DNA of 64,000 bases from Candidatus Kaiserbacteria bacterium (GCA_016214605.1 JACROD010000020.1:30158-94157); one strand, 5' to 3'. Positions 3,089 to 47,240 are shown, counted from the first letter of the stretch. Program-made: numbers and translations. Notes: generated by a model not told the origin, from the sequence alone.

Positions 3089-5857
3089 ATGGAAACGCGC
3101 GGGATGGAGCGGACACGCTCCGCATCAGCGGAAAAATTCAAGTCTCCGCAGGAGGAGCTTGCCTATTTGCGTGAGCGCGTGCGAGAGAAAGAACGCGAGC
3201 TTGATGTCCCGTCGGGTAATCGGGTCGAGAGCGATCGTATCGCCAAGCGCGAGTTGCGTGCATATGGCGAGGTCCCCGCATCACGCGTCTTACACGAGGA
3301 CTTTGTCATACCCGAGCACGAGACGATCCGCCAAATACTCAAGCTCGAACCGGAGACTCACGACAAGCAGATCGACGGCCTTCTCGATATGGTCGCTCAG
3401 CATGGGATCCGCAATGCACTTTCCATCGCCTCGCGCATGAAAAACCCCCACCTCGAAGACGATCTACATCGGGCGATAGTACAGTATATCGCCGAAGGTC
3501 TGCCATCGTCCGGCTATATGCCGGAGAAGGTCCGCAAAGGCCTCAATATGGTGCTTTTTGAGATACATCCGCAGGCGCAGGTCGCTGGCGAACAGGGGCA
3601 AATGCAACAGCACAAACTGGAACAGATGCTCTCATCGTCGGAGCAATTGTATGCCGGACTCTTGTCGCTCGTCGGCGAAGGCGAGTCTTTTTCCCTAGAG
3701 ATCGCGGTAGCCGAGGGTACCGAGGAGGCATCGCTCTATCTCGCCGTACCACGGCAAAAAAAGGACCTGACTGAGCGCCTGATATCATCGGTTTTTCCCA
3801 ATGCGCGCATCGATGAAAACCGCGGCGATTACAATATCTTCAACTACGAAGGTGAACATGCCGCCGCCTATGCCAAGCTTGCCGAGCATCCGGCACGACC
3901 GTTGAAGACCTACGAAGCATTCGAGCACGATCCGCTCAATGTGACCTTGGCCGCCTTTGCACGTATTGCCAAGCACGGTGAAGGTGCGGCTCTGCAGATC
4001 GTCGTCTCGAGCGAAGGAGATCGATACAATCGCCACTACCAAAAGATGCTTCGTGAACTCGAGAAGGGGAAGACCATGGGTGAGGCGCTGCACGTCCCCG
4101 AGACGGTCTTTGGCGAGGTCATACACGATATCGCATCGTCGATATTTACTACGGATGCGGAAAAACAAAAAGAGAAGGAGCACGAAATGCGACGTACATC
4201 CGACTCGGTATCGGCCGAAGCGATCGGTCGCAAGATCAAAAGCCGGATCGTCCCCGTGACGATCCGGCTCGTCACGTCGGCACCGACTGCGGCGCGGGCG
4301 GAGGAATTGCTCAAGAACCTCGCAAGCCCGTTCGGTCAGTTTGACGATGCCAAGGGTAATCGCCTCGTTTTCAAGGAGGTATCGAGCTGGTATCTGGGGG
4401 ACTTTTTGCGCGCGTTTACCTTTCGCGAATTCGACGAGGGGAGTGCTTTGCCGTTTTCGCTCACCGAGATCACGTCGATCTTTCATTTCACCGCCGAGCT
4501 CGTGACCACATCGCGTGAGCTCAAGAAGAGCTACGCCAAACAATCTCCCGCCCCGGTCGAAATGCCGCAAGACGGTATCACGCTTGGTATCAATCGCTAC
4601 GGCGGGTCCGATACGACGGTCAAATTCGGCGCTGCGGATCGTTTGCGTCACGCCTATGTCATCGGCCAGACAGGTACCGGCAAGACGGGCTTGATCAAAA
4701 ACATGATCATGCAAGATATTAAAAATGGCGAGGGTGTCGCTTTCATTGATCCGCACGGCAACGACATCGAAGACGTACTCGCCTCGGTGCCGCCCGAGCG
4801 CTACGACGACGTGATCTACTTCGATCCGGCATATACGGCGCGGCCGATGGGCCTCAATATGCTCGAATACGACGTGACGCGCCCCGAGATGAAGACGCTC
4901 GTCATCGACGAGGTCTACGGCATCTTCCGCAAGCTCTATTCCGATGTGCCGGAAGCGTTTGGCCCGATGTTTGAGCAGTACTATCGCAACGCCGTGCAGC
5001 TCGTACTCGAAGACCCTGATTCGGGCAACACTTTTGTCGAGATCGCACGCATATTCGCCGACGCGGATTTTCGCGATATGAAGCTCGCACACTGCAAGAA
5101 TCCGATCGTCGTGCAGTTTTGGCGCAAAATCGCCGAGCAGGCGCAAGGCGATCCCAGCCTCGAAAACATCGCGCCGTACATCGTCGGCAAGTTCGACGTA
5201 TTCCTCACGAATGATGTCATGCGCCCGATCGTCGCGCAGGAAAAATCCGCTTTCGACTTTCGCGAGATCATGGATGGGCGCAAGATCTTTTTGGCCAATC
5301 TCTCCAAGGGGCGCTTGGGTGATCGCAATACTTCGCTCCTCGGGCTCGTGCTCGTGTCCAAATTCCTCCAGGCGGCATTTTCGCGCGCCGATACACGCGG
5401 GGATATGCCACCTTTCTATTTCTATATCGACGAATTCCAAAACTTTGCCACGCCGTCGATCTCGACGATCCTCTCCGAAGCGCGCAAATACAAACTCTCG
5501 CTCACGATCGCGCACCAATTCATCGCGCAATTGGATGAAAGTATCAGGGATGCCGTGATCGGCAACGTCGGCACCAAGGCGGCGTTCCGTGTTGGCACCA
5601 CCGACGCCGAATTCTTGTCCAAGCAGTTCGAGCCGACCTTCACCGCCGCCGATCTCGAAAACCTCCCCAATCGCAATGCCGTACTCTCGCTCCTGGTCAA
5701 TGGCAAGCCCGCGCGTCCTTTCACTATCGAGACAGTCAACCTCCCACATGTCGACTACAGCGTGGTCGACATGCTCAAAAAACTTTCGTACGATAAATAT
5801 GGAGCCGACCGAGAAGAAGTAGAGGCGGAAATAAGGCGCAAATTTGCCCAATTGTAG
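3089..5857 (+). CDS. TrwB/VirD4/TraG-family (T4SS coupling-protein-like) ATPase with ~520-aa N-terminal extension
   Basis: Walker A GQTGTGKTG, Walker B-like YFYIDEFQNF, QSxxQL-like AHQFIAQL; C-terminal half paralogous to CDS 58920-60203; TTG at 3068 judged less likely than ATG 3089. Confidence 0.75.
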   Translation: METRGMERTRSASAEKFKSPQEELAYLRERVREKERELDVPSGNRVESDRIAKRELRAYGEVPASRVLHEDFVIPEHETIRQILKLEPETHDKQIDGLLDMVAQHGIRNALSIASRMKNPHLEDDLHRAIVQYIAEGLPSSGYMPEKVRKGLNMVLFEIHPQAQVAGEQGQMQQHKLEQMLSSSEQLYAGLLSLVGEGESFSLEIAVAEGTEEASLYLAVPRQKKDLTERLISSVFPNARIDENRGDYNIFNYEGEHAAAYAKLAEHPARPLKTYEAFEHDPLNVTLAAFARIAKHGEGAALQIVVSSEGDRYNRHYQKMLRELEKGKTMGEALHVPETVFGEVIHDIASSIFTTDAEKQKEKEHEMRRTSDSVSAEAIGRKIKSRIVPVTIRLVTSAPTAARAEELLKNLASPFGQFDDAKGNRLVFKEVSSWYLGDFLRAFTFREFDEGSALPFSLTEITSIFHFTAELVTTSRELKKSYAKQSPAPVEMPQDGITLGINRYGGSDTTVKFGAADRLRHAYVIGQTGTGKTGLIKNMIMQDIKNGEGVAFIDPHGNDIEDVLASVPPERYDDVIYFDPAYTARPMGLNMLEYDVTRPEMKTLVIDEVYGIFRKLYSDVPEAFGPMFEQYYRNAVQLVLEDPDSGNTFVEIARIFADADFRDMKLAHCKNPIVVQFWRKIAEQAQGDPSLENIAPYIVGKFDVFLTNDVMRPIVAQEKSAFDFREIMDGRKIFLANLSKGRLGDRNTSLLGLVLVSKFLQAAFSRADTRGDMPPFYFYIDEFQNFATPSISTILSEARKYKLSLTIAHQFIAQLDESIRDAVIGNVGTKAAFRVGTTDAEFLSKQFEPTFTAADLENLPNRNAVLSLLVNGKPARPFTIETVNLPHVDYSVVDMLKKLSYDKYGADREEVEAEIRRKFAQL

Positions 5858-6509: not shown

Positions 6510-6902
6510 ATGGAAAAGGAGTTTGACATCTGGAACGAGGCGAAAAAGCAGATCAATGCCGATGATGTGCGTGCTGATGTCTTTTATCACACACGTGAAG
6601 TTTGGTGGATCGCACTTGGTACCAATATCGGCTTCGAACAAGATGGCACCGGAAAAGGGCATCAGCGCCCCGCCATTATCCTAAAGGGCTTCAGTAAGTC
6701 AGTGTGTCTGATCATCCCGCTTACGACCTCAAAGAAACGGAATAAGTATTATGTGTCTGCGGGAACCATAGACGGAAAGGAAGCGGCCGCCATCGTATCA
6801 CAAGTGCGACTGGTCGATACACGGCGTCTGGTCAATCGAATCGGATTGTTGGATCACGATATTTTTGAGAACATCAGAAAAGCCGTCAAAGACATGCTCT
6901 GA
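6510..6902 (+). CDS. PemK/MazF-family toxin-like protein (no cognate antitoxin seen)
   Basis: 130 aa, MazF-like core (…RPAIIL…CLIIPLTTS…). Confidence 0.6.
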   Translation: MEKEFDIWNEAKKQINADDVRADVFYHTREVWWIALGTNIGFEQDGTGKGHQRPAIILKGFSKSVCLIIPLTTSKKRNKYYVSAGTIDGKEAAAIVSQVRLVDTRRLVNRIGLLDHDIFENIRKAVKDML

Positions 6903-12406: not shown

Positions 12407-13846
12407 ATGAAAGACCACTCAGGCAAAGCATCAGTGACATTTTATGGGGGAGCGGGCACCGTGACCGGTGCCAATTTCTTGCTTGACGCCGGTGACCCCG
12501 CAAATGGACGCGGGGCAGGTGTGAAGATACTCTTTGATTGCGGTGCGCTTGAGCGCGAACATGTCTGCGATACCAGCAATGGCATGCCTTTTGCATATGA
12601 TCTGCGATCGATCGACACACTCATCGTGACCCACGCGCATGCCGATCATATCGGCCGGATACCCAAGCTCGTACATGACGGCTTCAAGGGTACGATCTAC
12701 TCGACCGCCGCCACCAAAGACCTCGCCGAGCTCATGTTTGAGGATGCGATCAAAGTAATGGAAATGGACGTAGAGCGCCACGGATGCGAGATGATCTATC
12801 AAAAAGAGGATGTAGTGGCGGCGCTCACGCTCTGGCGCACGCAGGATTACCACGATCCTTTTGAAGTAGGGTCCGCGACGATCGAATTTTTTGACGCAGG
12901 GCATATCCTGGGCGCGGCGATGGTGAAAGTTACCCATGCGATGGAAGGTCAGACCTTCCATGGAAGGTCTGACCTTCCATCATCGCGTTCCATCCTTTTC
13001 ACCGGTGATCTGGGGAATTCTCCCGAGCCTCTTTTGAACGACACCGAAGCTCCCGCAGGAGTGAATTATGTAGTGATGGAGAGTGTGTATGGAGATCGCC
13101 TACACGAGGGTCGCGATGATCGCACCGATATACTGCGCCGCGCAATCGAGGATACGCGTATGCGCAACGGCGTGCTCTTGATCCCGTCTTTTTCGATCGA
13201 GCGTACGCAGATACTGCTCTACGAGATCGAAAAGATGATCGAAGACGGCGCCATGGAGCCGATCCGCGTGTATCTCGATGCGCCGCTCGCGATCAAGATC
13301 ACCGAGGTATTTCGCCGCCACAAAGATCTCTTGAATGCGCAGGTGCGCGCGCGCTTTGAAGCTGGCAATGACCCCTTCACCTTTGGCGGGCTCAAGCTTA
13401 CGGCCGATGCGTCCGAATCACACGAGATCCACAATGCGCCAAATCCCAAGGTCATCATCGCCGGTGCGGGGATGTCGGCCGGCGGGCGTATACGCTCACA
13501 CGAGAAACAGTATTTGCCCGACGAGAAGGCGACGGTGCTTTTCGTCGGCTACCAGGCACCAGGATCGCTTGGTCGGCAGATCGCCGATGGTAATAAACAT
13601 GTCACTATAGACGGCGAAAAGATCCGTGTGCGTGCGCAGATCGCCACACTCACTGGGTATTCCGGTCATCGCGACCGCGACGGGCTTATGGAATTCGTCG
13701 AGCAATTGGGTGATTCATTGGAGCGCGTGTTTGTCGTGATGGGGGAGCCAAAATCCGAGATGTTTCTTTCCCAGCGCATCCGCGATTTCCTCGGTGTCGA
13801 AGCAATAGCACCCGAGCAAGGTCAAAAGATCGAGATCGATTGGTAA
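12407..13846 (+). CDS. MBL-fold beta-CASP RNA-metabolising hydrolase (RNase J/CPSF73-like)
   Basis: THAHADHIGR (HxHxDH), beta-CASP length 479 aa. Confidence 0.7.
   Translation: MKDHSGKASVTFYGGAGTVTGANFLLDAGDPANGRGAGVKILFDCGALEREHVCDTSNGMPFAYDLRSIDTLIVTHAHADHIGRIPKLVHDGFKGTIYSTAATKDLAELMFEDAIKVMEMDVERHGCEMIYQKEDVVAALTLWRTQDYHDPFEVGSATIEFFDAGHILGAAMVKVTHAMEGQTFHGRSDLPSSRSILFTGDLGNSPEPLLNDTEAPAGVNYVVMESVYGDRLHEGRDDRTDILRRAIEDTRMRNGVLLIPSFSIERTQILLYEIEKMIEDGAMEPIRVYLDAPLAIKITEVFRRHKDLLNAQVRARFEAGNDPFTFGGLKLTADASESHEIHNAPNPKVIIAGAGMSAGGRIRSHEKQYLPDEKATVLFVGYQAPGSLGRQIADGNKHVTIDGEKIRVRAQIATLTGYSGHRDRDGLMEFVEQLGDSLERVFVVMGEPKSEMFLSQRIRDFLGVEAIAPEQGQKIEIDW
12941..12980. repeat. Tandem duplication of a 19-bp palindromic unit (atggaaggtc[a/t]gaccttcc) inside MBL CDS
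   Basis: Read directly; encodes HAMEGQTFHGRSDLP. Confidence 0.7.
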
Positions 13847-13931: not shown

Positions 13932-16900
13932 ATGCCTATCCCACGAAAACGCATAATGTTTGCGATCCCGCTCCTCATCTTCACAGTTGGCGTACAGCTT
14001 TCAGCCACTTTCTATGCGAGTGCACAATCAACACCATCCGCCGCCTGCCCATCCGCTCCACCTACGTGTGCTGCAGGTCAAACTCTCTATTATGTCCCAG
14101 ACGGTAGCACATGCACCAACGCGCAGATGAAATGCCGTGGAGCGGCCGGCACTGTTCCCGCAAGTTCCGCAGGCAACTCTTCGTCCCTTTCCCGCGGTTC
14201 TCGCGGTGCATCCGTCCTTGCATTCCAACAATCACTCATTACCGCAGGCTTCCTCGAAGCCGGCAACGCCACCGGCTTCTTTGGCGCACTCACCGAAGCG
14301 GCGGTCAAGCAATTCCAGAATGCACGCGGTATTGTCTCAAGCGGATCACCCGCAACAACAGGATACGGAGCCATTGGCCCCAAGACACGCCGCGCGCTTG
14401 AAAGCATCGCATCCGCAATTCCTCCCGATATGGATTCGACAAGCTCACCGCAAGCCGAGACGAATCCCGCAACCACCCAGTCACCGGTCGAACAACTCCT
14501 CGCCCAAGTAGCACAGCTACAAAAAAAGATCGCCGCATTTGGCGGCACGCCCGTCTCAATTCCTGCGACACCTTCCACACAGACTTCCGAGATCACCCGC
14601 ACTCTCGCTATCGGCTCCCGTGGTGACGACGTTACTTCTCTCCAGCAATTCCTCATCGCGCAAAACCTCCTTTCCACAGACAGCGCCACCGGCTTTTTCG
14701 GCAAAGCTACCGAAGCTGCGGTCAAGAAGCTGCAAGCGCAGCACAACCTGGAACAAGTCGGACATGTGGGTCGACTAACCAGAGCAGTCATCAATGAGGT
14801 GCGTCGTCCGGCGACACCACCGCCCGACACCACACCATCGCCGAATGAAGGGGGGACGCCAGCGCCATTTGGTGGAGGAGGCGGAGCACCCGCACCCGTA
14901 CCCGTACCCGCAAGCGGTGGCGGAGGTGGCGGGGGAGGAGGATCCTCTGGTGGAGGAGGATCTTCCGCCCCTGTCTCTTCAAGTGGCGGGTTTTCCGGCG
15001 GCAGTGCGGCATTTCCGCCACCTGAGTCAGTGCCAACATCAGATAGTACGATTCCTTCGAATACTACCGATACATCGATACTGGTCTCCGCTCCCGCACT
15101 GGCGCTCACTGCTTCAGCAGGTCCTCTTTCCATCAAGATCATCTCGCCTGATATCAGCACTACTCCCGCAGTGGCTGGCGTCGTCAATCTCGCGGCGACC
15201 GCAAGCAGCACGAGCAGCATCACCGGCGTGCAATTCAAGCTCGACGGTGTGAACCTCGGTCCCAAAGATACGATCCCTCCCTATACCGCAACAGCCACCG
15301 CAAGCGATACCGCGGGGAATGTCGCTTCGACGACGATTAATCTCCTAGGGCGAAGCACTTCATACCTGAGCGTCACACCTGCTCCCGGTACTTACAAAAG
15401 CTCGCCGCAAACTATTTATCTCTCCGCAAGCACCACGATCCGCTATCGCCGTGATGGAATCGTTCCTACCTGTGCGTCCGGCAACTTATATTCAGGTGGA
15501 ATAAATATCGCCACCTCCACCATCATCCGCGCCATCGCCTGCAAGGGCACCAAGGCGGCGTCCCCGGTGACTTCTTTCACTTATGACATCATCAATGCGT
15601 CTCTATACTACACAGCATACGGCGGCAGAATCGTCGTACCACAGCCAGGAGCCGCTACCTCGACCATCCTCAAGCCGGTTATTGCCGATCTTCAAAATTA
15701 CCTCAAACAGATGACCGGCACGGACTTCTACCTCGGTCAGTACGCCACTGCTCCCGGCATCAATCTCATCCTTACGAGTTCTCCCTCTGCTCCTGCTGAT
15801 ACTGTGGCACAGCTCAACGGCAAAGGACCCGAAGCTTTCCTCATTCGCGGCAATGCCACACGGCTCCAGATCATCGCCAACGACGAGCACGGTCTCTCGC
15901 ACGGCGTGTACTACTATCTCGAACAGCTCGGTGTACGTTGGCTCATGTCGGGTAGCAATTGGACGATCGTGCCGAAAAAGGGCAACGTCACGCTCACGAT
16001 CGATAAGCTCGTAGAGCCGGCGTTCTTTACGCGGTCGTATGCGGGTACAGGTGGTTTTGCCACGTATCGCGGGTGGGGCTATAACTGGGGCAACGCGGAT
16101 GATGGGACGAGGGTCTTTGTCAAAGATACCGCCGATTGGCAACGGCGTATGAGGTATGGCGGTCAATCGCTCGGGCATGCCACCGGCGAAGCATTTATCA
16201 CAGCAAATGTGAGCACCCTGAAAGCACACCCTGAGTATCTGGCAAAGATAGATGGTGCGTATTCTCCACTCTTCAGGACGCCATTCGCCGGGCCAGGGAA
16301 AGGTGCATACGTATGGGATGCGGCTACGCATGACTACATCAAGGCGGTGCCGGCATACACTGGTACACATGATCTCAACATCATCGCCAAGCTCAACGCC
16401 GGTAATCCTGATGTGGTCAATCTCTTTTGCAACTATATTCTGAAAGCATTTCGGACTACACGCTCTTTGCCGGGAGGCTCTTTCTATCAGACGGTGAGCG
16501 TGGAGCCATCAGACGGTGGCGGAGAAGGCAACAACTACGCCGAACTGCAAGCACAAGGAGTAGGTGATGGTTCGGAGGCCGATCAGGAATTCTTCATCGG
16601 CAACAAGTGTGCACGCATGGTGCGCGCAGAATTTCCCGATACATCGGTCATCATGCTTGCGTATGTGGCACGCGCAGATCCTCCGAGCTTCCCGCTCGAG
16701 CCCAACTTCATCATCCAACCGGCACTTGCATTCCGTGGCGGCAAGAAAACTGCGGATTTGAGCACTGAAGAGTGGATCGCGTTATGGAAGACGAAAGCCC
16801 CGAGGATGGGAGTATACGACTACTGGTCGATTCCCGACTGGACGCATGAAGAGCCGACGTTCGATTACCTCCACATAGCGGACAAGCTACGCCACTACTA

Positions 16901-18230
16901 TACCAACAACATCAAGGGCATAAATGCCGAATCCAGTTATGGTATGGGCGCTATGGGCATCGGCCACTACCTTGCCCAGCACCTCATGTGGGACATCAAT
17001 CTCGACGACAAGGCGCTTATCGACGAATGGTACACGCTCGCCTTCGGTCCCGCCAAGGCGCCTATGAAGCGGATGCTGGAGCGTTGGTCCACAAGCTACA
17101 TGCCTATCTCCTCGGAGCTTAGTGCTTCGTATCAAGATATCAACGAAGCAGAGCGGCTTGCGGTCAGTAATCCTGCCGTCCAAGCGCGCATCGATGATTA
17201 TGCGGGATATGTTCAGTATCTGCGCCTGCGCGATGAGCTTCTCAATGCGACCGATACGGCAGTGAAGACACAAAAAGCGATGTTGCTCGCCGAACACATC
17301 TTCGATATCAGCGATTCTCATATGGTGCAGACGATGCGAATCTTTGATAGAGATGTTGCCCCAGTGGACCCATCTGTTCTTGTCGCATTCGATTTCAGCG
17401 ATCCTCTGCATCCGGGCCCCGGCTGGGCGCGTGTCCACAAACTCTCGCATGCCGAAATCCTCGCACTCATTTCCGACGGCATAAGCAAGTATCCCGCGCC
17501 GGATTTCACGATCAAGAAATATACCGGAAATCTCGTGCCGCTCCAGACGATCTCGTGGCAGACGCCGACTACGACCGATAAGTGGGGGCCACACATGTTT
17601 ACCGCTGGGGATGCGGATGTAACACTTGAAATTCCGAGCGGACTCTCGAATCTCCCTCTGCGCATATCGCGATTTGTGAACAATCGCATCACGATCACCA
17701 ATACGGCAGGAAATACCGTTTACAATCGTGTGGTAACCGCATTGGCCACCAGCTCGTATGGCAATATTATCAATCCGACATGGGAGGAGCTCAGCATTCC
17801 GCTTGCCCCGGGCCGTTACAAGATCAGCTTCCATGCAACAGGCGCCAGAGTCGGCACGTTCAAATTCCAGACTTGGAAGGAGGTGCCGATCACAATGCAG
17901 AGCTTCCTTATGCCGAGTGTGGTGGGCCAGGCCACCAAACTCTACTTCTACGTTCCAAAAGGTCAGCAAAAGGTCGTCTTCTATCTTCCCCAAGGTGCTG
18001 CCGCTGGCGCCTCCGCACCGAAGTTCTACGATTCGACCGGCGCGCTCATCGCCTCCGAGCGTCGTGATGCAGGCAAGGTTCAGGTCGCGAATGTACCTGT
18101 CGGCCAGGACGGCAAAGTATGGATGGTGGCAAACCTGTACTCGCCAAACTTCCTCTTCGAGACATTCACCGTGCCACAGGCATTCTCCCTCGAACCGCAA
18201 GTCCTCATGGTGCCGAGTGATGCGCTGTAG
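13932..18230 (+). CDS. Large secreted multidomain protein: two PG_binding_1 repeats, Gly/Pro-rich linkers, DUF4838-like glycoside-hydrolase-like domain
   Basis: Signal peptide; duplicated LAFQQSLI…GFFG…AVKQFQ / LQQFLIAQN…GFFGKATEAAVKKLQ; …GLSHGVYYYLEQLGVRW…. Confidence 0.65.
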   Translation: MPIPRKRIMFAIPLLIFTVGVQLSATFYASAQSTPSAACPSAPPTCAAGQTLYYVPDGSTCTNAQMKCRGAAGTVPASSAGNSSSLSRGSRGASVLAFQQSLITAGFLEAGNATGFFGALTEAAVKQFQNARGIVSSGSPATTGYGAIGPKTRRALESIASAIPPDMDSTSSPQAETNPATTQSPVEQLLAQVAQLQKKIAAFGGTPVSIPATPSTQTSEITRTLAIGSRGDDVTSLQQFLIAQNLLSTDSATGFFGKATEAAVKKLQAQHNLEQVGHVGRLTRAVINEVRRPATPPPDTTPSPNEGGTPAPFGGGGGAPAPVPVPASGGGGGGGGGSSGGGGSSAPVSSSGGFSGGSAAFPPPESVPTSDSTIPSNTTDTSILVSAPALALTASAGPLSIKIISPDISTTPAVAGVVNLAATASSTSSITGVQFKLDGVNLGPKDTIPPYTATATASDTAGNVASTTINLLGRSTSYLSVTPAPGTYKSSPQTIYLSASTTIRYRRDGIVPTCASGNLYSGGINIATSTIIRAIACKGTKAASPVTSFTYDIINASLYYTAYGGRIVVPQPGAATSTILKPVIADLQNYLKQMTGTDFYLGQYATAPGINLILTSSPSAPADTVAQLNGKGPEAFLIRGNATRLQIIANDEHGLSHGVYYYLEQLGVRWLMSGSNWTIVPKKGNVTLTIDKLVEPAFFTRSYAGTGGFATYRGWGYNWGNADDGTRVFVKDTADWQRRMRYGGQSLGHATGEAFITANVSTLKAHPEYLAKIDGAYSPLFRTPFAGPGKGAYVWDAATHDYIKAVPAYTGTHDLNIIAKLNAGNPDVVNLFCNYILKAFRTTRSLPGGSFYQTVSVEPSDGGGEGNNYAELQAQGVGDGSEADQEFFIGNKCARMVRAEFPDTSVIMLAYVARADPPSFPLEPNFIIQPALAFRGGKKTADLSTEEWIALWKTKAPRMGVYDYWSIPDWTHEEPTFDYLHIADKLRHYYTNNIKGINAESSYGMGAMGIGHYLAQHLMWDINLDDKALIDEWYTLAFGPAKAPMKRMLERWSTSYMPISSELSASYQDINEAERLAVSNPAVQARIDDYAGYVQYLRLRDELLNATDTAVKTQKAMLLAEHIFDISDSHMVQTMRIFDRDVAPVDPSVLVAFDFSDPLHPGPGWARVHKLSHAEILALISDGISKYPAPDFTIKKYTGNLVPLQTISWQTPTTTDKWGPHMFTAGDADVTLEIPSGLSNLPLRISRFVNNRITITNTAGNTVYNRVVTALATSSYGNIINPTWEELSIPLAPGRYKISFHATGARVGTFKFQTWKEVPITMQSFLMPSVVGQATKLYFYVPKGQQKVVFYLPQGAAAGASAPKFYDSTGALIASERRDAGKVQVANVPVGQDGKVWMVANLYSPNFLFETFTVPQAFSLEPQVLMVPSDAL

Positions 18231-18292: not shown

Positions 18293-18976
18293 ATGGCAAA
18301 ACGTAATGCGAATCCGAATCATAGTGCCCCGCCCAAGAAACTCTGCCGCGTCCCCGACGGATACGGCATCATCAAGATCGGTGTATCCGGGTCGGCGGAT
18401 CTGGCACACCTCGGTCTCGATGTGTTTGAGCGCGCCAAGGAAGTCGGCCGCGAAATTGCGCGCCAAGGTGCGATCATCACGACTGGTGCTACCACTGGCT
18501 TCCCGATGTTTAGCGCACAGGGTGCCAAGGATGAATGCGGCCTCTCCATAGGATTCTCTCCCGCCGCGACCGAGGACGAGCATGTGGGCACCTACAAGCT
18601 CCCACTCGATTTCATGGATGTGATCGTCTATACCGGATTTGGATATTCGGGGCGCGATCTGCTCTTCGTCCGCTCCTCGGATGCGATGATCATCGGCCCA
18701 GGCCGCATTGGCACCTTGAATGAATTTTCTGTAGCATTTGAAGACCAAAAGCCGATGGGCATTCTCGAGGGCAATTGGGATACCGACGAGCTCCTCAAGC
18801 TCGTGATCGATGCTGCACACCGCCCCAATGCCAACATCATCTTTGATTCCGACGCCAAGGCACTCGTGGAGCGCCTGATCGAAATGGTCAACAAACGCAA
18901 GTCAATAGGCGTCCCGGTCTACAACAGTCACGACGGATGGTCGGCGACAGGCAAGAACGCCGAGGTGATCTTGTAA
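18293..18976 (+). CDS. LOG/TIGR00725-family (SLOG Rossmann) protein
   Basis: ITTGATTGF…IIGPGRIGTLNEF motifs. Confidence 0.5.
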   Translation: MAKRNANPNHSAPPKKLCRVPDGYGIIKIGVSGSADLAHLGLDVFERAKEVGREIARQGAIITTGATTGFPMFSAQGAKDECGLSIGFSPAATEDEHVGTYKLPLDFMDVIVYTGFGYSGRDLLFVRSSDAMIIGPGRIGTLNEFSVAFEDQKPMGILEGNWDTDELLKLVIDAAHRPNANIIFDSDAKALVERLIEMVNKRKSIGVPVYNSHDGWSATGKNAEVIL

Positions 18977-19005
18977 AACACAGTAAATTTTGCGTAAAAA
19001 CAAAT

Positions 19006-19041
19006 GCGCCATATAATTCACGGCCGTGAATTATATGGCGC
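19006..19041 (+). terminator. 36-bp perfect palindrome (gcgccatataattcacgg|ccgtgaattatatggcgc) downstream of LOG gene
   Basis: Read directly. Confidence 0.5.
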
Positions 19042-19079
19042 GGGTGATTTTATAGAATCCCTAGCGGGAACCCCCCCAT

Positions 19080-19322
19080 ATGATTTGCAATAAATGCGGT
19101 TATGCTACAATTGCACATATGAAGGTAAACGCTGACCTTACCAAGATCCTCACCAAGGAACATGAAGAAAAGTGGGTCGCCCTGACGAAGAATCACGACA
19201 AACTCGTTGATTGCGCAAGTAATCTCAAGATCCTCAGGGACCGCCTAGGTGAGCACAGGAATGATTATGTGTACATGAGGGTATTGCGTTCGGATATGGA
19301 ATACAGTTTTTCCTTTACATGA
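19080..19322 (+). CDS. Hypothetical 80-aa protein with N-terminal CxxC (MICNKCG)
   Basis: ORF track; stop overlaps next start (ATGA). Confidence 0.35.
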   Translation: MICNKCGYATIAHMKVNADLTKILTKEHEEKWVALTKNHDKLVDCASNLKILRDRLGEHRNDYVYMRVLRSDMEYSFSFT

Positions 19323-19741
19323 CACGGCCCAAGTGGAAAGCATACGACTACAAGATTCAGGCTGGACCCGGCATGAGCTGGGTTCATCGACCAATGATCA
19401 ATATTGAGGTTTGGACGCTCGATGGGCGTGACATGGTGCCGATTTTGGCAATGATCGACTCTGGTACTGATGGAACGGTATTTCACGCTAATATCGCGGA
19501 GTCACTCGGGATCGATGAGTCAATGGGAAGAAAAGGAATACTTGGTGGCATCGGTTCGCTCGACGGTTTTTATACAGAAGTAAAGATCGTTGTCCCGGAT
19601 TTTAATATCTCGTATAAAGCCCCGGTGTTCTTTGGGAAGAATCTCCCTATGGATGGATTGTTGGGGCAGGCTACTTTCTTTCCACAATTCAAGATCAGGT
19701 TTGAAAAAGCTGAAAACAAATTTTATCTCGCGGTCTCGTAG
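19319..19741 (+). CDS. Retropepsin-like (clan AA) aspartic protease domain protein
   Basis: AMIDSGTDGTVF (D-S/T-G motif), ~140 aa. Confidence 0.5.
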   Translation: MTRPKWKAYDYKIQAGPGMSWVHRPMINIEVWTLDGRDMVPILAMIDSGTDGTVFHANIAESLGIDESMGRKGILGGIGSLDGFYTEVKIVVPDFNISYKAPVFFGKNLPMDGLLGQATFFPQFKIRFEKAENKFYLAVS

Positions 19742-19818
19742 TTTGTGGATCTAAAAAAGCTTCAAGTGGGATTTTTTCATTCACGTAAAAGCCATGGGCG
19801 AGCGATTAGAGTGACCTC

Positions 19819-20331
19819 ATGGACCCGTCCGCTTTTCGCCTTGATGACGGCAAGAATGACTGGAATATCTTTTTTGCGGTCTTTTTTCTCGCTGTCCTGA
19901 TCGTCTCTGTCTGGAGTATATGGATGATCCGTGGTGGCTTCCCAGTGTCGGTCCCCATTTTTGATGCGATTCTCATGGCTTTTGCGGCGATGCGGATCGT
20001 GCGGCTCGTCGTTTATGATTCGATCACCGGATTCTTCCGCGAATACTTCATGGAGGTGCGTATCACCGATGTGTCGGGCAAGCGGCTCGTCGAAGTGGTG
20101 CCGGCTAAGCGCGGTGCGCGAGGCACACTCTATGACTTGGTGCGTTGTCCGTGGTGTATCGGCATGTGGGCGGGACTCATTGTCACATTTTGCTACTTCG
20201 TCTTTCCCTGGGCGTGGTATGTCATCCTTTTTCTTGCCGTTTCGGGTGCGGCATCGTCTTTGCAAGTGCTTATGAATCTGATCGGTTGGGAAGCCGAGGA
20301 CTACAAGCTCGACACCTGGTCCAAGGAGTGA
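19819..20331 (+). CDS. DUF1360-like membrane protein
   Basis: CPWCIGMW motif, TM segments. Confidence 0.5.
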   Translation: MDPSAFRLDDGKNDWNIFFAVFFLAVLIVSVWSIWMIRGGFPVSVPIFDAILMAFAAMRIVRLVVYDSITGFFREYFMEVRITDVSGKRLVEVVPAKRGARGTLYDLVRCPWCIGMWAGLIVTFCYFVFPWAWYVILFLAVSGAASSLQVLMNLIGWEAEDYKLDTWSKE

Positions 20332-20341
20332 ACCGGCAACA

Positions 20342-20368
20342 AAAAGCCCCTTGTCGGGGCTTTTTGGT
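20342..20368 (+). terminator. Rho-independent terminator (aaaagcccc ttgtc ggggcttttt)
   Basis: Hairpin + T-run. Confidence 0.65.
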
Positions 20369-20383
20369 TTATTGTGTTTTGGT

Positions 20384-20413
20384 TTATTTGACCTCGCCCA
20401 TGAAGCGGGTGAA
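20384..20413. repeat. 30-bp copy of rplT 3' end (ttatttgacctcgcccatgaagcgggtgaa), orphan
   Basis: Identical to 21209-21238; minus strand encodes …PEEFTRFMGEVK*. Confidence 0.9.
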
Positions 20414-20497
20414 CTCTTCTGGAGACTTTTCCATTGACATTTTATATCTCAACAGGTATCTCTAAGGAAGTGTTCTTTAACAAAAGGAACAACAGAG

Positions 20498-21148
20498 ATG
20501 AGTGTATTGGCCGATAAGCGGGTGCCGTTCGCGGTACTTGTTGTAGATGTGTCCGAAGACTGGGAAGAGGTTGTCAAAGATCATGAGCGAGGATATGCGA
20601 TTGATTTCGAAAATTTTGGGTCAGGAGGATATAAGGCTACAGGATTAACATCCCTCGATATCGAGTATCCGCATGGATCGGTTAGGGCAGGGTTCAATGC
20701 CATCATCGATACGGTGCGTATTGCGTACAAACTCAAGATCCCGACATTTGCGGTCCATACGACTGATGAATGGTCAGATGGTGACGAAGTCACCTGTGAG
20801 TCGCTCCAGTCTTATATACCGAAAGAGCATCAGGCTTACAAGGGAGACTTTAGTGCCTTTGTCGATCCCTGTCGGTTCGAAGGTGAAGGGATCGCTGCCA
20901 AGATCGAACGTGTCCGACCGGAGCATCTCATGATTCTTGGATATGACCGGGATCATTGCGTGCTGGCGACGGTGAAGGATGCGGTAGCGCGCGGATACAA
21001 AGTGGTGACGTCCGAGCACTGTATGCTAACCAAAGCGGATTCGACAAGACGGGATGAGACACTTGCGTATTATCGAGAGCATACCCAACACATCGAGGCG
21101 CTTTCCGAAGTGTGGAACTATCTATGGTCACATCGTTGTCTCTCATAA
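20498..21148 (+). CDS. Isochorismatase-family cysteine hydrolase
   Basis: …MILGYDRDHCVLATVKDAVARGYKVV… (catalytic Cys context). Confidence 0.65.
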   Translation: MSVLADKRVPFAVLVVDVSEDWEEVVKDHERGYAIDFENFGSGGYKATGLTSLDIEYPHGSVRAGFNAIIDTVRIAYKLKIPTFAVHTTDEWSDGDEVTCESLQSYIPKEHQAYKGDFSAFVDPCRFEGEGIAAKIERVRPEHLMILGYDRDHCVLATVKDAVARGYKVVTSEHCMLTKADSTRRDETLAYYREHTQHIEALSEVWNYLWSHRCLS

Positions 21149-21161
21149 TGGGTTCAGATAT

Positions 21162-21196
21162 AAAAAAGCCGCGACTCAACGAGTCGCGGCTTTTCT
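21162..21196. terminator. Bidirectional terminator (A6-gccgcgactc aac gagtcgcggc-T4)
   Basis: Between convergent hydrolase gene and rplT. Confidence 0.65.
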
Positions 21197-21208
21197 TTGA
21201 CATCAAAA

Positions 21209-21238
21209 TTATTTGACCTCGCCCATGAAGCGGGTGAA
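21209..21238. repeat. 30-bp repeat, native 3' end of rplT
   Basis: See 20384-20413. Confidence 0.9.
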
Positions 21239-21553
21239 GACTTCCGGGTGGTCTTTGGCGAGATCGGCCATGACCTTGCGGTCGAGGGCGATGTTGCCTT
21301 TCTTGAGGGTGTCGATGAATTTGGAGTAGGAGATACCCATCGGGCGGACGGCAGCGTTGATGCGGATGGTCCAGACATTGCGGGCAAGGCGTTTCTTGGT
21401 CTTGCGGTCGCGGAACGCATTGCGGCCTGCATGGAAGATGGCCTCCTTGGCGGTGCGCTCTTTGGTGGAGCGGCCGAAGCGGTAGCCCTTGGTCTGAGCC
21501 AAGACATTTCGGCGGCGCTTAAGCTTTGTGGTACCTCGTTTGACGCGTGACAT
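21209..21553 (-). CDS. rplT: 50S ribosomal protein L20
   Basis: MSRVKRGTTKLKRRR…INAAVR…ISYSKFI. Confidence 0.9.
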   Translation of the reverse strand: MSRVKRGTTKLKRRRNVLAQTKGYRFGRSTKERTAKEAIFHAGRNAFRDRKTKKRLARNVWTIRINAAVRPMGISYSKFIDTLKKGNIALDRKVMADLAKDHPEVFTRFMGEVK

Positions 21554-29534: not shown

Positions 29535-29539
29535 TAATT

Positions 29540-29929
29540 GGTGGAGGTGCGGGGAATTGAACCCCGGTCCAAAGAAAGATGTCGTGTATGGTCTACGTCG
29601 CGTAGGTCATCTGGTTTTTTTAAGAACAACGTAATCAAGATGAACAGAAATACGGTGTACCGAGCTCTTGTCTTAGATACATGTCGAGCGGCATGTATCA
29701 GTGCCTGATAGGTTTGACGCCTCGCGAATTCTACTCAGGTGATCAAATTCGGAGACGGAGCTTAGGCTACGAGAGCGTAAGCTGGCTGCAAATCTGCCAT
29801 CTGGATAGGTGACAAAACTGCCCGTGCTACTTTGTTCGCACTTAGGTTTTTGTGGCGGTTTGAAAAGTCACCACAGCTTTGCGACGCACATACAGGAATC
29901 GGTTTCCCTGTCGAAGCCAAGTCACCCCC
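29540..29929 (-). ncRNA. ssrA: tmRNA (SsrA)
   Basis: 5' GGGGGUGACUUGGCUUCGACAGGG…, tRNA-like 3' end GGUUCAAUUCCCCGCACCUCCACCA, acceptor G3:U70, tag frame ending …PAYALVA-UAA, smpB adjacent. Confidence 0.85.
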
Positions 29930-30448: not shown

Positions 30449-30928
30449 TTAAAAATTACTTTTACGGGGTTTATTTTTCAAGGTACGTCTCAGCTCTCGC
30501 TCGGTATCGCGCTTTTTTATGGTCTCGCGTTTGTCTTGCTTTTGCTTGCCGCGCGCGATGGCTATTTCGAGCTTCAACCTCCTTTTTCTATTATACACCG
30601 CTATAGGGATGACTGTCAAGCCCTGCTCTCCCTCTGCTGCCGCCACCCGGGCTATTTCCTTCTGATTGAGCAATAGACGGCGCGTTCGCTCGGGATCGTA
30701 GCTCTTTGGTGCGTTGGCTGCCTGCCAAGCGGGGATCGTGGCGCCCACCAGATAGGCCTCTCCAGCGCGCGCCACGACCCTGGCGCCCTTGAGCGAGCCG
30801 AGGCCTGCCCGCAGAGATCGGACCTCATATCCGTGCAATTCTAGACCCGCCTCGATCGTCTCGAGGATATGGTAGTCAAAGGTCGCCCGTTTGTTGTCGA
30901 TGAGGGACATTACTGTATCATGCTTCAT
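30449..30928 (-). CDS. smpB: SsrA-binding protein
   Basis: …ATFDYHILETIEAGLELHGYEVRSLRAG…, basic C-tail. Confidence 0.9.
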   Translation of the reverse strand: MKHDTVMSLIDNKRATFDYHILETIEAGLELHGYEVRSLRAGLGSLKGARVVARAGEAYLVGATIPAWQAANAPKSYDPERTRRLLLNQKEIARVAAAEGEQGLTVIPIAVYNRKRRLKLEIAIARGKQKQDKRETIKKRDTERELRRTLKNKPRKSNF

Positions 30929-39906: not shown

Positions 39907-39979
39907 CCGTCCGTAGCTCAATGGTTAGAGCACGAAGCTTATACCTTCGGGGTTCCTGGTTCGAGTCCAGGCGGACGGA
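39907..39979 (+). tRNA. tRNA-Ile (anticodon UAU)
   Basis: Canonical cloverleaf folded by hand: acceptor ccgtccg/cggacgg, D gctc/gagc, anticodon stem cgaag/cttcg, loop cUUAUAc, T-arm cctgg-ttcgagt-ccagg; CCA not encoded. Confidence 0.75.
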
Positions 39980-40012
39980 CACGATATTGGTCTTGGTTTT
40001 ATTTGGTATGCT

Positions 40013-43108: not shown

Positions 43109-45409
43109 TCATTCAGAATGGAGCTCCGTATGCGAGGTTTCGGTCCGCATGCGGAGCTCTTCGTGTTGTGCGAGTGTGGGGTCGGCCGCCACGATGCGTA
43201 TTGCTTCTTCGCGTGCTGCCTGGATGAGCTTCACGTTTTGGAGTGCTTCCATGCCGATGTCGGATACGCCCCACTGATGTCCGCCGCGCAAATCGCCTGC
43301 GCCGCGCGTCGCGAGATCGGCCTCGGCGAGTACAAATCCATCGTCGGACTTTTCAAGTGTCTTCAGTCGCTTGAGAGATATCTCCCCGGTCGTCTCAGGG
43401 AGGAGGAAACAGATTGGCGGATGCGAACTGCGCATGACGCGGCCGCGCAGCTGGTGGAGCTGTGCCAAGCCGAAGCGCTCGGCACCCTCGATCATGATCG
43501 CGGTCGCGTTGGGGACATTGACGCCGACTTCGACGACGGAGGTCGCCACGAGGATCTGTATTTCATTGCGTTCGAATCGTTTCATTACCTCGTCCTTTTC
43601 CTTTGGCTTCATCGCTCCGTGCAGAAGGCCGACTTCGTATTCGGGAAAGACGTCTTTTTGCAGGCGCTTTTGCTCGGCTTTGGCGGAGCGCGCCTGCAAG
43701 GCGCCGATCTTCGCCGGGTCCGGCTCTTCGATGCGCGGGCATATGACGTACGCTTGGCGGCCTTTCACCAGCTCCGCGCGGACGAGCTCGTATGCTTCGT
43801 CGCGCTGATCTTTTTTCACGATGCGAGTCGCAATCTTGGCGCGTCCCGGCGGGAGCTCGTCGAGGATGGAGAGATCGAGATCGCCATAGATGGTGAGCGC
43901 AAGCGTGCGCGGGATCGGGGTGGCGGTCATGGAGAGGAAGTGAGGTGAAGGGGCGCGGGACATTCCCACATTTCGCCCTGCGGAACTCCCTTCGGTCAAA
44001 CAGTCCTCGGTCAAAATGTGGGAATGTCCCGCGCCCTCACGGGCGTTTTTCTGCGCTAACGCGCGGCGCTGTTTGGTGCCGAAGCGGTGTTGTTCGTCGA
44101 TGATTGTGTACGCGAGGTGTTGGAACTCGACGGATTTTTGGATGAGCGCGTGCGTGCCGATGAGCATGGCGATCTCTCCATTTTTCACCCACTTGAGGAG
44201 TTGTGCGCGCGACACTTCGGTCGCTTTTCCTCTACCGATCTTGGAGGGGAATTTTTTGCACCCACTGCCGGTGATGAGACCGATGTTGATCGGGAGGTGT
44301 GAGAAGTATTCGATGAAGGATTGAAAATGCTGCGTAGCGAGGATCTCCGTCGGCGCCATATAGGCCACCTGCAAGGTCCCGCTTGTACGCCCCGGCGGGC
44401 GCGCAGTGACGATCGCGTAAGCCGTCGCCGCCGCGACCAGAGTCTTGCCTGAGCCGACGTCGCCTTCGAGGAGGCGCGCCATCGGGTGTGGTTTGCCGAA
44501 GTCTTTGAGGATGTCGTCGATCGCACGGATCTGTGCTTTGGTCGGGGGGAAGGCGATCGAGTCGAGGAATTCGTTGGCGCGCGCGTGCGCATCACTGATG
44601 GGAAATGTCTTGAACGAATCATTTTCCGCACGCTCCATCGCGCGCGTGATCTGTATCGTGAGGATCTCTTCAAAGGCAAATCGTTTGCGTGCGGCCGCCG
44701 CATGAGTGTCTTTCTCCGGTGTGTGGATATAAATGAGCGCCTCGGCGAGGTCGGGGAGATGATACCTTTTGAGGATGTCCGGCGGGATTGGATCGACTAG
44801 GGCCTCGTGTACATGCTGTGCAAAGACACGTTCGAGTGCGTGATAAAACCATCGACTCGTGATGCCTCGACTCTCCGGGTAGATAGGAAACAAAGACTTT
44901 GAATCCACTTCGACTGTGTCCGATGTCTCTCCGTTTGCAAAAAGCCCCTTGCTTGAACTGATCGCCGCCCCCACCATATCCGGCGGGATGATCTCGACCT
45001 CGGGGTTGGTCAGATACACGCGGCCCTCTTTGCCGCCGACCGTGCCGGTGACCTTGGCGACAGCGCCCTCGGGGATATACGAAGCGATGTAGGGCTGGTT
45101 GAACCACATGACCTTGACTCGGCCGGTCCCATCCTCAAACCATCCTTCAGTCGCATTGCGTCGACTCTTCCAAAGCTTCTTCGCTTTGAGTCCGTGAAAG
45201 GTCCCGATGAGCGTCACCTTGGTCCCCGGCACGAGCCCCGCCGCATTGGCCGATGCTCCTGCCGTGTCGAAGCGCACCGGGAAGTGATACAGGAGATCAT
45301 GGATCGTATGCAGTCCCAGCCGCTTCAGAGCCGCCTTCTGGTCCGGCACGAGGCGGAAATAATCGGTGATATTACTTGACGGGTCCATAATTATAGTATA
45401 CAATATCAC
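43109..45409 (-). CDS. recG: ATP-dependent DNA helicase RecG
   Basis: Wedge + helicase motifs (GDVGSGKT, DEQHRFG, TATPIPRT); start may be 45386. Confidence 0.9.
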   Translation of the reverse strand: MILYTIIMDPSSNITDYFRLVPDQKAALKRLGLHTIHDLLYHFPVRFDTAGASANAAGLVPGTKVTLIGTFHGLKAKKLWKSRRNATEGWFEDGTGRVKVMWFNQPYIASYIPEGAVAKVTGTVGGKEGRVYLTNPEVEIIPPDMVGAAISSSKGLFANGETSDTVEVDSKSLFPIYPESRGITSRWFYHALERVFAQHVHEALVDPIPPDILKRYHLPDLAEALIYIHTPEKDTHAAAARKRFAFEEILTIQITRAMERAENDSFKTFPISDAHARANEFLDSIAFPPTKAQIRAIDDILKDFGKPHPMARLLEGDVGSGKTLVAAATAYAIVTARPPGRTSGTLQVAYMAPTEILATQHFQSFIEYFSHLPINIGLITGSGCKKFPSKIGRGKATEVSRAQLLKWVKNGEIAMLIGTHALIQKSVEFQHLAYTIIDEQHRFGTKQRRALAQKNAREGAGHSHILTEDCLTEGSSAGRNVGMSRAPSPHFLSMTATPIPRTLALTIYGDLDLSILDELPPGRAKIATRIVKKDQRDEAYELVRAELVKGRQAYVICPRIEEPDPAKIGALQARSAKAEQKRLQKDVFPEYEVGLLHGAMKPKEKDEVMKRFERNEIQILVATSVVEVGVNVPNATAIMIEGAERFGLAQLHQLRGRVMRSSHPPICFLLPETTGEISLKRLKTLEKSDDGFVLAEADLATRGAGDLRGGHQWGVSDIGMEALQNVKLIQAAREEAIRIVAADPTLAQHEELRMRTETSHTELHSE
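43951..44036. repeat. Perfect 21-bp inverted repeat (gggcgcgggacattcccacat … atgtgggaatgtcccgcgccc) with 44-bp spacer, in-frame inside recG
   Basis: Read directly. Confidence 0.85.
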
Positions 45410-46883: not shown

Positions 46884-47240
46884 TTACCGATCTCTACTTG
46901 ATCTGATCCATCCGCCGAGCATTCGGCCGATCTCATCAATATCGGATTGGAGAATGACGTATTTCTTATTGTCGATTGCTTTCACATCGGACATGAGTCT
47001 GATGAATACGCGCAAAAGATTCAATCTTGAACTCGCGTTTTCGAGGACGGGTAGTTTTTCGGCTTTTCCGATGTGTCCGGCAAGGAGCACCGCTTCCAAT
47101 ATCTCGAGTATAAGCGATTCGCATTTTTGCCAGATCGTGTAGCGATCCTGCCTCGAGATATCGGCGCGATATCCGTAAAAGGTCTTGTACAGATCGTACG
47201 TTTTCTTGAAGATCGGAGTATCAAAATCATTCATACGCAT
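46884..47240 (-). CDS. avd: Accessory variability determinant (Avd)-like four-helix-bundle protein
   Basis: 118 aa, between TR and RT, start codon overlaps RT start divergently. Confidence 0.6.
   Translation of the reverse strand: MRMNDFDTPIFKKTYDLYKTFYGYRADISRQDRYTIWQKCESLILEILEAVLLAGHIGKAEKLPVLENASSRLNLLRVFIRLMSDVKAIDNKKYVILQSDIDEIGRMLGGWIRSSRDR

Follow-up and report, generated by a model that had tools for sequence, protein, structure and literature searches.

Introduction

In homology-facilitated illegitimate recombination, foreign DNA that is contiguous with a homologous anchor joins the chromosome at its other end at a non-homologous point, with no enzymes of a dedicated element. The mechanism, with joints of 3-10 bp, is known from Acinetobacter, Streptococcus pneumoniae and Pseudomonas stutzeri (original reports by de Vries & Wackernagel 2002, Prudhomme et al. 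2002 and Meier & Wackernagel 2003, summarised in PMC6382021), and genes for natural competence and recombination are documented in Patescibacteria (PMC10633639; PMC12455944). Genomic islands that enter the 3' ends of tRNA, tmRNA or protein-coding genes leave the target intact, with repeats of the target end (attL and attR) flanking the insert and an empty site in relatives. A Campbell-type single crossover duplicates the shared segment as direct repeats around an insert, which can be lost again between them. Pangenomes also contain hotspots of variable genes bounded by conserved core genes, and integrons hold single-gene cassettes in varying order at one locus beside a fixed gene.

Here, we describe a locus in a 64-kb stretch of Candidatus Kaiserbacteria DNA (the window) that resembles each of these systems in part. 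The 3' end of rplT, the terminal gene of the infC-rpmI-rplT operon, is repeated on the far side of an 825-bp module that carries an isochorismatase-like hydrolase gene. As in homology-facilitated illegitimate recombination, one end of the foreign DNA continues into a homologous anchor (the rplT operon, or else the side of a SLOG/LDcluster4 gene) and the other lies at a non-homologous point, dedicated element enzymes need not be invoked, and the host phylum is naturally competent (PMC10633639). What differs is that the event is reconstructed from a natural genome and that the joint falls within the final 39 nt of a gene that is essential. Because the incoming DNA replaced the end of that gene, the event would have been tolerated and would have left a recognisable gene fragment.

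The locus shares with genomic islands the flanking repeats of the target end, the intact target and the empty site in relatives; unlike them, neither the insert nor its surroundings contain an integrase, only 825 bp with a single gene of housekeeping type have been added, other genomes do not reuse the site, and the downstream copy has allele-type differences and the native terminator. The direct repeats around a losable insert recall a Campbell-type crossover, but a segment of 30-39 bp only just reaches, or falls short of, the length that efficient RecA recombination usually requires, and we know of no circular intermediate for the rplT module. Like a pangenome hotspot, the interval between rplT and the SLOG gene holds variable genes (HAD, NUDIX, MOSC, DUF1360, isochorismatase, methyltransferase and a two-component pair); it is distinguished by lying in Kaiserbacteria, by single-gene modules that each have a terminator, and by repeated breakpoints at the rplT stop codon. 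With integron cassettes it has in common single-gene modules in varying order at one locus beside a fixed gene, whereas IntI and attC-like boundary repeats are absent and the modules have their own promoters and mixed orientations. We favour, at a probability of roughly 60%, the reading that the duplication is a scar, left when alternative versions of a hypervariable locus recombined in a way that was anchored by homology but partly illegitimate. The footprint is of a known kind, an ordinary recombination scar, and no new class of mobile element.

Results

The rplT 3' end is present twice in the window

An earlier note on this DNA, made from its sequence, had reported that the last 30 bp of rplT are duplicated around the hydrolase gene and that degenerate similarity extends further. 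The 30-mer TTATTTGACCTCGCCCATGAAGCGGGTGAA has two exact occurrences in the window, both of them on the plus strand: 20384-20413 and 21209-21238. With up to three mismatches permitted no additional copy appeared in the window, and 100 dinucleotide-preserving shuffles gave 0 matches, so the duplication is real. The right copy comprises the final nine codons and the stop codon of the 114-aa L20 ORF on the minus strand, and the left copy, translated on the minus strand, reads MEKSPEEFTRFMGEVK followed by a stop codon. The two copies are:

21209-21553, minus strand: functional rplT (L20, 114 aa; Pfam Ribosomal_L20, E = 1.6e-33), whose last 39 nt (21209-21247) form the second repeat copy
20384-20422, minus strand: rplT' relic, corresponding to the final 39 nt of one rplT allele, of which 30 nt are exact and 9 nt have diverged

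The comparison drew on a set of 80 species-representative Kaiserbacteria/Paceibacteria loci and, for gene content, on 96 loci (L001-L096); exact and near-exact protein look-ups gave 14 contigs from relatives with L20 at least 93% identical. The closest protein relatives of the window's L20 come from Candidatus Kaiserbacteria and other Paceibacteria MAGs, and its C-terminus, FTRFMGEVK, is restricted to the window's immediate clade.

The degenerate similarity past 30 bp also holds up, to 39 nt with 36 of 39 positions identical and all three mismatches outside the 30-bp block. Built from the final 45 nt of rplT in ten clade members, a sequence profile finds the left copy along its positions 7-45 (E = 7e-12). 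Over positions 31-39, the relic agrees with the window's own rplT at 6 of 9 positions (an anchored-extension control gives p of about 0.05-0.1, weak alone) and with the rplT allele of L093 (CCAGAAGTG) at 8 of 9; given the latter fit, we take 39 bp as the true extent of the repeat. We tested for similarity past 39 bp and found none that was credible. At the other end, the identity of the copies stops exactly at the rplT stop codon. The final 24 nt of rplT are almost invariant within the clade, which makes the exact identity of the distal 30 nt less striking.

A copy this well preserved might have been kept for a function, as a 16-aa peptide (MEKSPEEFTRFMGEVK), as a decoy in L20 autoregulation, or as part of the hydrolase promoter; it is exact over 30 bp, contains an ATG-initiated ORF, and is followed 12-50 bp downstream by the hydrolase -35 box. 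However, no ribosome-binding site precedes the ATG, and L20 operators are known at the 5' end of the operon, not at its 3' end. Moreover, L084 has the same hydrolase gene and upstream region without the fragment, and the fragment is found in just 1 of 13 clade members, the window itself. We regard a functional role as scarcely credible. The relic is the original rplT 3' end, stranded and non-functional.

The left copy adjoins a terminator found behind rplT in relatives

The earlier note had placed the hydrolase gene and two terminators between the copies. The gene does lie there, together with just one of the terminators (term1); the other (term2) lies outside the left copy:

21164-21194: term1, bidirectional terminator with perfect 14-nt arms, common to the hydrolase gene and functional rplT
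20340-20366: term2, bidirectional hairpin (AAAAAGCCCC-loop-GGGGCTTTTT) identified by terminator scan and fold
20367-20383: spacer of 17 nt from term2 to the relic stop codon, homologous to the spacer behind the real rplT in relatives

The position of term2, just outside the left copy, is informative in itself. The two hairpins fold with -28.2 and -24 kcal/mol (term1; z of -7 and -5.3) and with -18.7 and -19.4 kcal/mol (term2) on the two strands. Hairpins homologous to term1 stand behind rplT in L084/L001, with an isochorismatase gene, and in L090, L094 and L096, with a HAD gene, while the term2 hairpin stands behind the real rplT in L093, L095 and L088/L089.

The relic, spacer and term2 together (20340-20422) match the real rplT end plus term2 of L095 at 92.9% over 84 bp, and the real rplT end plus terminator of L093 at 87%; from the stop codon through the hairpin, the window and L095 differ at 2 of 44 nt. 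Because of these matches, the left copy is identified as the original rplT terminus, and the right copy as the one that came with term1. The left copy is no product of an insertion machinery, and term2 is the native rplT terminator, now serving DUF1360 alone. This native unit now lies 825 bp downstream of the working rplT.

The two copies also represent different alleles. Relic positions 31-39 read CCAGAAGAG and those of the functional gene CCGGAAGTC, the latter as in L084, L001, L095 and L090. At rplT position 315 the relic has G, as do L088, L089, L093, L094 and L096, and at position 309 it has A, as does L093; the functional copy has the C/G allele that is common to L084, L001 and L095. Since the alleles at 315 and 309 differ, the relic did not arise by simple copying of the gene as it now stands. 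At position 314 the relic has A, which gives Glu where the 80 relatives have Val, Ala, Thr, Ile, Ser, Leu or Phe, and which is probably a later mutation in dead DNA.

One site counts against the recombination scar that we favour. Position 333 gives GGC in both window copies and GGA in 12 of 12 relatives, and this shared GGC demands that the parents belonged to the same local population, or that heteroduplex repair, gene conversion or in-situ copying took place. Along the whole window rplT the SNPs are mixed (15 B-like sites and 5 interspersed D-like sites), and sliding identity along the operon gives a pattern that points to no particular donor or recipient.

Relatives carry a variable set of genes between rplT and SLOG

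The far boundary of the variable interval is conserved:

18293-18976, plus strand: SLOG/LDcluster4 gene (Pfam E = 8.3e-31)

This gene is convergent to rplT in 57 of the 80 species-representative loci, and in 33 of these 57 the gap is shorter than 200 bp. Other gaps hold up to 3.3 kb of unrelated genes (among them methyltransferase, RNase T-like exonuclease, two-component pair, HAD and PaaX-like genes). Among relatives with L20 at least 93% identical we found eight gene arrangements behind rplT, nine with the window:

L093 and L097/L098: rplT, terminator, SLOG; the basal state (hairpin confirmed as term2 for L093 only)
L091/L092: rplT, another hairpin, two small ORFs, SLOG
L095: rplT, term2, MOSC, NUDIX 3' remnant, SLOG
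L094 and L096: rplT, term1, HAD; in L096 then NUDIX and aldolase, while L094 ends inside the first downstream gene
L090: rplT, term1, HAD, DUF1360, term2-like hairpin, NUDIX
L088/L089: rplT, term2, DUF1360, HAD
L084 (equal to L001, 100% over 1197 bp): rplT, term1, isochorismatase, half of term2, NUDIX remnant, SLOG
Window: rplT, term1, isochorismatase, junction, rplT', term2, DUF1360, retropepsin, orf80, SLOG

The rplT-SLOG interval is thus a newly described hypervariable locus in Kaiserbacteria. L084 and L095, which are the same species, illustrate the exchange: both flanks are 96-97% identical, and in between the two diverge 4 nt past the rplT stop codon, one with term1 and isochorismatase and the other with term2 and MOSC. 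term1 accompanies rplT beside two different cargo genes, and terminator type is independent of the rplT allele; because the two do not track each other, exchange with breakpoints at the rplT stop codon is recurrent. The module is contiguous with rplT-rpmI-infC sequence that is 87-100% identical in relatives carrying another arrangement.

Two relatives preserve the empty site. In L088 and L089 an unbroken alignment runs over window positions 19771-20422 and continues from 21209 onward, with no hydrolase gene, so that the comparison of relatives proposed in the earlier note shows an uninterrupted DUF1360-term2-rplT order. A search of the 80 genome loci, and of 14 additional loci from relatives, for duplicates of their own rplT tails came back empty; the lone tail-like match, in L053, has 5 mismatches and is at chance level. 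An CTATTTGATCCTGCTC next to the term2-like hairpin of L090, considered as a second, older relic, is without statistical support.

L084 is the most instructive relative. It carries the hydrolase (88% identical), its upstream region and term1 beside rplT, without the relic, and thus formally presents the case that the earlier note named as refuting its reading. Its bearing is ambiguous: directly before the equivalent of 20432 it reads CCAAAAAGCCCC, which is the arm of term2 distal to rplT and touches the module, so L084 may have lost the fragment by deletion. Upstream of CCAAAAAGCCCC lies the 3' remnant of a NUDIX gene that is also found in L090 and L095. Two histories would fit, a deletion of ~79 bp from a window-like state (junction, relic, spacer and half of term2) or an independent entry of the module at a slightly different point. 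We also considered whether the 135-bp spacer of L084 is a decayed end of DUF1360, and rejected this, as it equals the NUDIX 3' remnant of L090 and L095.

The hydrolase module ends in a unique junction

The 825-bp module consists of the new rplT tail, term1, the isochorismatase-like gene and its putative promoter. Its remaining parts, and the DNA that joins it to the relic, are:

20498-21148, plus strand: isochorismatase-like cysteine hydrolase, 216 aa (PF00857, E = 2.2e-7), the inserted cargo gene
20432-20497, plus strand: hydrolase upstream region, with TTGACA (20434-20439), a weak candidate -10 (20457-20462), and AAGGAA ahead of the ATG
20423-20431: junction of 9 nt, absent from rplT and from L084

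The hydrolase scores 31.6 bits against PF00857, above the Pfam gathering cut-off of 27, and has 35 homologues, of which all 34 that are full-length match PF00857 and a close one is named 'nicotinamidase-related amidase' by one source. Matches to solved isochorismatases and nicotinamidases are weak. Of the catalytic Asp-Lys-Cys triad, Cys153 (...YDRDHCV...) aligns with ...SGCV... of 3ot4, while Asp17 and Lys114 are putative members picked out by eye. The hydrolase is 88% identical to that of L084 at the amino acid level with a dN/dS of 0.11, and is under purifying selection. An exact look-up of the window hydrolase returned no record, although proteins 100% identical to it and to DUF1360 are listed for a 100,913-bp Kaiserbacteria contig at NCBI, and a scan of JGI metagenome data returned the single known contig and no further filled sites. 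The upstream region may act as a promoter, although a consensus promoter scan did not flag it. Positions 20432-20531 are 91% identical to L084, and the 3' half of the hydrolase gene is 76-82% identical.

Homology to D-type relatives stops at 20422 and homology to L084 begins at 20432. The recombination joint thus lies somewhere in 20414-20431, giving 9-18 nt of junction DNA. From the left copy the sequence runs on into CTCTTCTGGAGACTTTTC, which has no other occurrence and no k-mer in common with rplT.

This junction bears on whether the arrangement could be an assembly artefact, a chimera of co-occurring DUF1360-term2-rplT and hydrolase-term1-rplT strains, fused through the 30-mer that they have in common. 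The window is part of a metagenome-assembled genome, variants of the locus co-occur in one sample (L084 and L095 both come from JGI 3300037810), and 30 bases is near common k-mer sizes. But an assembler jump at the 30-mer would run into true rplT, whereas the left copy runs into CTCTTCTGGAGACTTTTC; because that sequence is unique, there must be a molecule in which an rplT-like tail precedes the hydrolase promoter. Just the link to DUF1360 could then be chimeric, yet this has the natural rplT-term2-DUF1360 order of L088/L089. We reject the chimera, which we hold to be very improbable, on the unique junction sequence.

Two features of transposable elements were also considered. A 14-nt inverted pair (20440-20453 and 21152-21165) is AT-rich, matches at 13 of 14 positions (11 of 14 in L084), and is at chance level as terminal inverted repeats, about 2 such pairs being expected per 5-kb region by our own estimate. 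A transposon or IS with a target-site duplication, for which 2-14 bp is expected, was rejected, as the duplication spans 30-39 bp and the window has no transposase.

A model for the origin of the scar

In the recombination scar that we favour, two haplotypes, rplT-term2-DUF1360 and rplT-term1-isochorismatase, would have existed in related strains, and one recombination event would have joined them. The anchored side would have used ordinary homology, whether to the rplT/rpmI/infC operon, to the short tail of rplT or towards SLOG, and the other side would be an illegitimate joint ~39 nt inside the resident rplT. The process would be homology-facilitated illegitimate recombination following uptake of DNA; an equivalent product would result if a fragment circularised and then entered through the tail by a Campbell-type single crossover. 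No dedicated integrase would be needed, and the event would be one among many in the locus between rplT and SLOG. It could be tolerated because the incoming DNA brought an intact rplT end and the strong bidirectional term1. In the outcome every gene has kept a terminator, rplT is intact, and DUF1360 retains term2. The window itself encodes RecG (43109-45388). The sequence comparisons show what the relic is, the empty site, the origin from two alleles, the hypervariability of the locus and the lack of a recombinase in the window; we infer the enzymology, the recipient parent and the age of the event.

The earlier note had offered two readings, an integration targeted to the rplT 3' end and an illegitimate-recombination cassette insertion. 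An insertion at the infC-rpmI-rplT terminus that left the rplT 3' end intact did take place, as the empty site in L088/L089 and the match of the relic and term2 to the native end in L093, L095 and L088 support. Integrase-type targeting is not supported, with no integrase in the 64 kb. The second reading comes close to the scar proposed here.

Site-specific integration would make the module an 825-bp mobilisable cassette with the 30-bp rplT tail as attachment site, a recombinase encoded elsewhere, and a regenerated rplT end. In keeping with it, exact 30-bp direct repeats surround a compact one-gene module, identity ends precisely at the stop codon, a lineage-specific SNP is common to both copies, and the promoter-side boundary at 20432 recurs in L084 with differing DNA beyond it. 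The exact end at the stop codon and this shared boundary, both of which a discrete mobile cassette would also show, are further points against our favoured reading. However, a Pfam scan found no integrase, transposase or resolvase domain among about 55 ORFs across the 64 kb, so that the integrase sought elsewhere by the earlier note has no match in the window. Nor does any of the 80 genome loci or 14 further relative loci duplicate the tail. The rplT tail pattern gave 0 matches in 2.9 million viral contigs, and the hydrolase has no homologue in phage and plasmid collections. Its more distant homologues (55% identical) sit in unrelated neighbourhoods, with a ClpX-type zinc-finger protein and an acetyltransferase, and not beside rplT. 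Finally, relic positions 31-39 resemble another rplT allele and not element DNA. We consider site-specific integration unlikely.

A broader variant holds that the last 30 bp of rplT plus a terminator form a reused docking site for single-gene modules in Kaiserbacteria, at which isochorismatase, HAD, MOSC and DUF1360 modules are exchanged through some unrecognised mechanism or a recombinase whose gene lies elsewhere, the window being a module caught with both copies of the site. This is speculative and, in our view, decidedly improbable. If true, it would amount to an integron-like cassette system in this phylum, where to our knowledge none is known.

The insertion may instead be old and look young. 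The module would have entered once, before the window and L084 split; L084 would then have lost the relic by the ~79-bp deletion, from the module boundary into the term2 loop, and gene conversion would have kept the 30 bp identical. That L084 retains the rplT-distal arm of term2 (CCAAAAAGCCCC) against the module, at the equivalent of 20432, fits such a history. Divergence between the window and L084 is at a dS of about 0.55, and the hydrolase (0.58) is close to the neighbouring SLOG gene (0.53), as vertical co-inheritance predicts. The shared GGC is compatible with conversion, and the three mismatches all lie beyond the 30-bp block, but such clustering is expected without conversion where the last 24 nt are nearly invariant. 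Gene conversion over only 30-39 bp of homology is also inefficient. The relic shows 2-4 changes against roughly 5-11 expected for a neutral 39-mer (by our own Poisson estimate, whose low end does not decide the matter). In addition, the spacer and term2 are 95% identical between the window and L095, but the term1 region is 74% identical (26% differing) between the window and L084, which suggests a recent exchange of the term2 unit. We therefore keep an old insertion as a tentative alternative, and the few relic changes and the unusually well conserved term2 unit mildly favour a younger event.

Use of the locus

The scar shows, base by base, how an accessory gene can be gained beside an essential ribosomal operon that stays undamaged, in a streamlined, uncultured bacterium. 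The rplT-SLOG interval is a fast-changing locus of Kaiserbacteria, and with nine arrangements among near relatives it is convenient for strain typing and for studies of recombination in Patescibacteria. The 30-bp direct repeats lead us to predict that the 825-bp module can be deleted precisely, restoring rplT-term2.

The AT-rich block has a separate history

The earlier note had raised the possibility that an AT-rich block at 19.0-20.3 kb, with a retropepsin and DUF1360, belongs to the same insertion. The block holds:

19080-19741, plus strand: orf80 and a retropepsin-like ORF (weak Asp_protease_2 match), with flanking non-coding DNA over 18977-19770
19819-20331, plus strand: DUF1360 gene (Pfam E = 7.5e-21), which adjoins rplT in L088/L089 and is present in L090

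Its two parts have different origins, neither of them in that insertion. GC content is 0.42-0.48 over about 19050-19800, against ~0.53-0.57 around it, and 0.52-0.56 in DUF1360. orf80 and the retropepsin-like ORF have no homologue in any of the 96 loci and are unique to this genome, and are therefore a separate acquisition unrelated to the rplT duplication. DUF1360 belongs to the older DUF1360-term2-rplT arrangement: together with 48 bp upstream it is common to L088-L090, where three different genes precede it.

Shared base change and inverted pair around the hydrolase gene

The two copies of the rplT tail, in the functional gene and in the relic (the stranded original rplT 3' end), share a base change: position 333 of rplT falls in GGC (Gly) in both (window 21221 and 20396), and in GGA in 12 of 12 relatives of the clade. 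This lineage-specific GGC might stem from gene conversion, from repair of a heteroduplex or from parents that both belonged to a single population, and none of the explanations proposed accounts fully for its presence in both copies. The hydrolase gene is also bracketed by a short inverted pair:

20440-20453 and 21152-21165: 14-nt inverted pair, TTTTATATCTCAAC / GTTCAGATATAAAA, matching at 13/14, flanking the hydrolase gene on both sides

This pair is AT-rich, its match falls to 11/14 in the rplT locus of one close relative (L084), and its frequency in 5 kb is about that expected by chance.

Gene decay and a second indel around SLOG

In the rplT loci of two close relatives, a truncated NUDIX remnant begins directly at the SLOG stop codon:

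L084:2089-2223 and L095:5613-5722: 5'-truncated NUDIX remnant, ending ...IAELIWLASTDKDKTTTPGAMVLDWLKEHDLID*

The intact end of the NUDIX gene is present in a third locus, L090 (216-344). The remnant points to gene decay within the variable rplT–SLOG interval. Between NUDIX and DUF1360 in L090 (345-395), a hairpin resembling the native rplT terminator is followed by CTATTTGATCCTGCTC. This stretch resembles the rplT tail TTATTTGACCTCTC at 13/16 positions, with two gaps. It may represent a more ancient and degraded counterpart of the relic in the window, but nhmmer did not detect it.

The opposite side of the same SLOG gene carries a second large indel, defined by presence or absence of the first of these genes:

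13932-18230: 1432-aa protein with DUF4838, two PG_binding_1, CHB_HEX_C and Big_7 domains
12407-13846: beta-CASP/RMMBL gene

L084, L091 and L097 lack the 1432-aa protein gene, and there the beta-CASP/RMMBL gene adjoins SLOG. In another relative's locus, L093, an RVT_1 gene immediately adjoins SLOG.

Other genes of the window

Further features are as follows:

46884-47240 (-): bAvd-like ORF, adjoining the RVT_1 ORFs
47239-47859 and 47805-48287 (+): reverse transcriptase (RVT_1), in two overlapping ORFs
29539-29929 and 30449-30928: tmRNA gene (tag ANKVARAVLSPIQMADLQPAYALVA*) near smpB
39907-39980: tRNA-Ile(TAT)
6510-6902: PemK/MazF-like toxin ORF
3089-5857 and 58920-60203: one TraG/VirD4-like coupling-protein ATPase in each interval (TraG-D_C, TrwB_AAD_bind)

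The bAvd-like and RVT_1 ORFs (46884-48287) form a diversity-generating-retroelement-like pair, in which the division of RVT_1 may reflect a frameshift or sequencing error. No island-like insertion was noted at the tmRNA gene or tRNA-Ile(TAT). Coupling-protein ATPases of the TraG/VirD4-like type are reported for the machinery of type IV secretion or DNA transfer in Patescibacteria.
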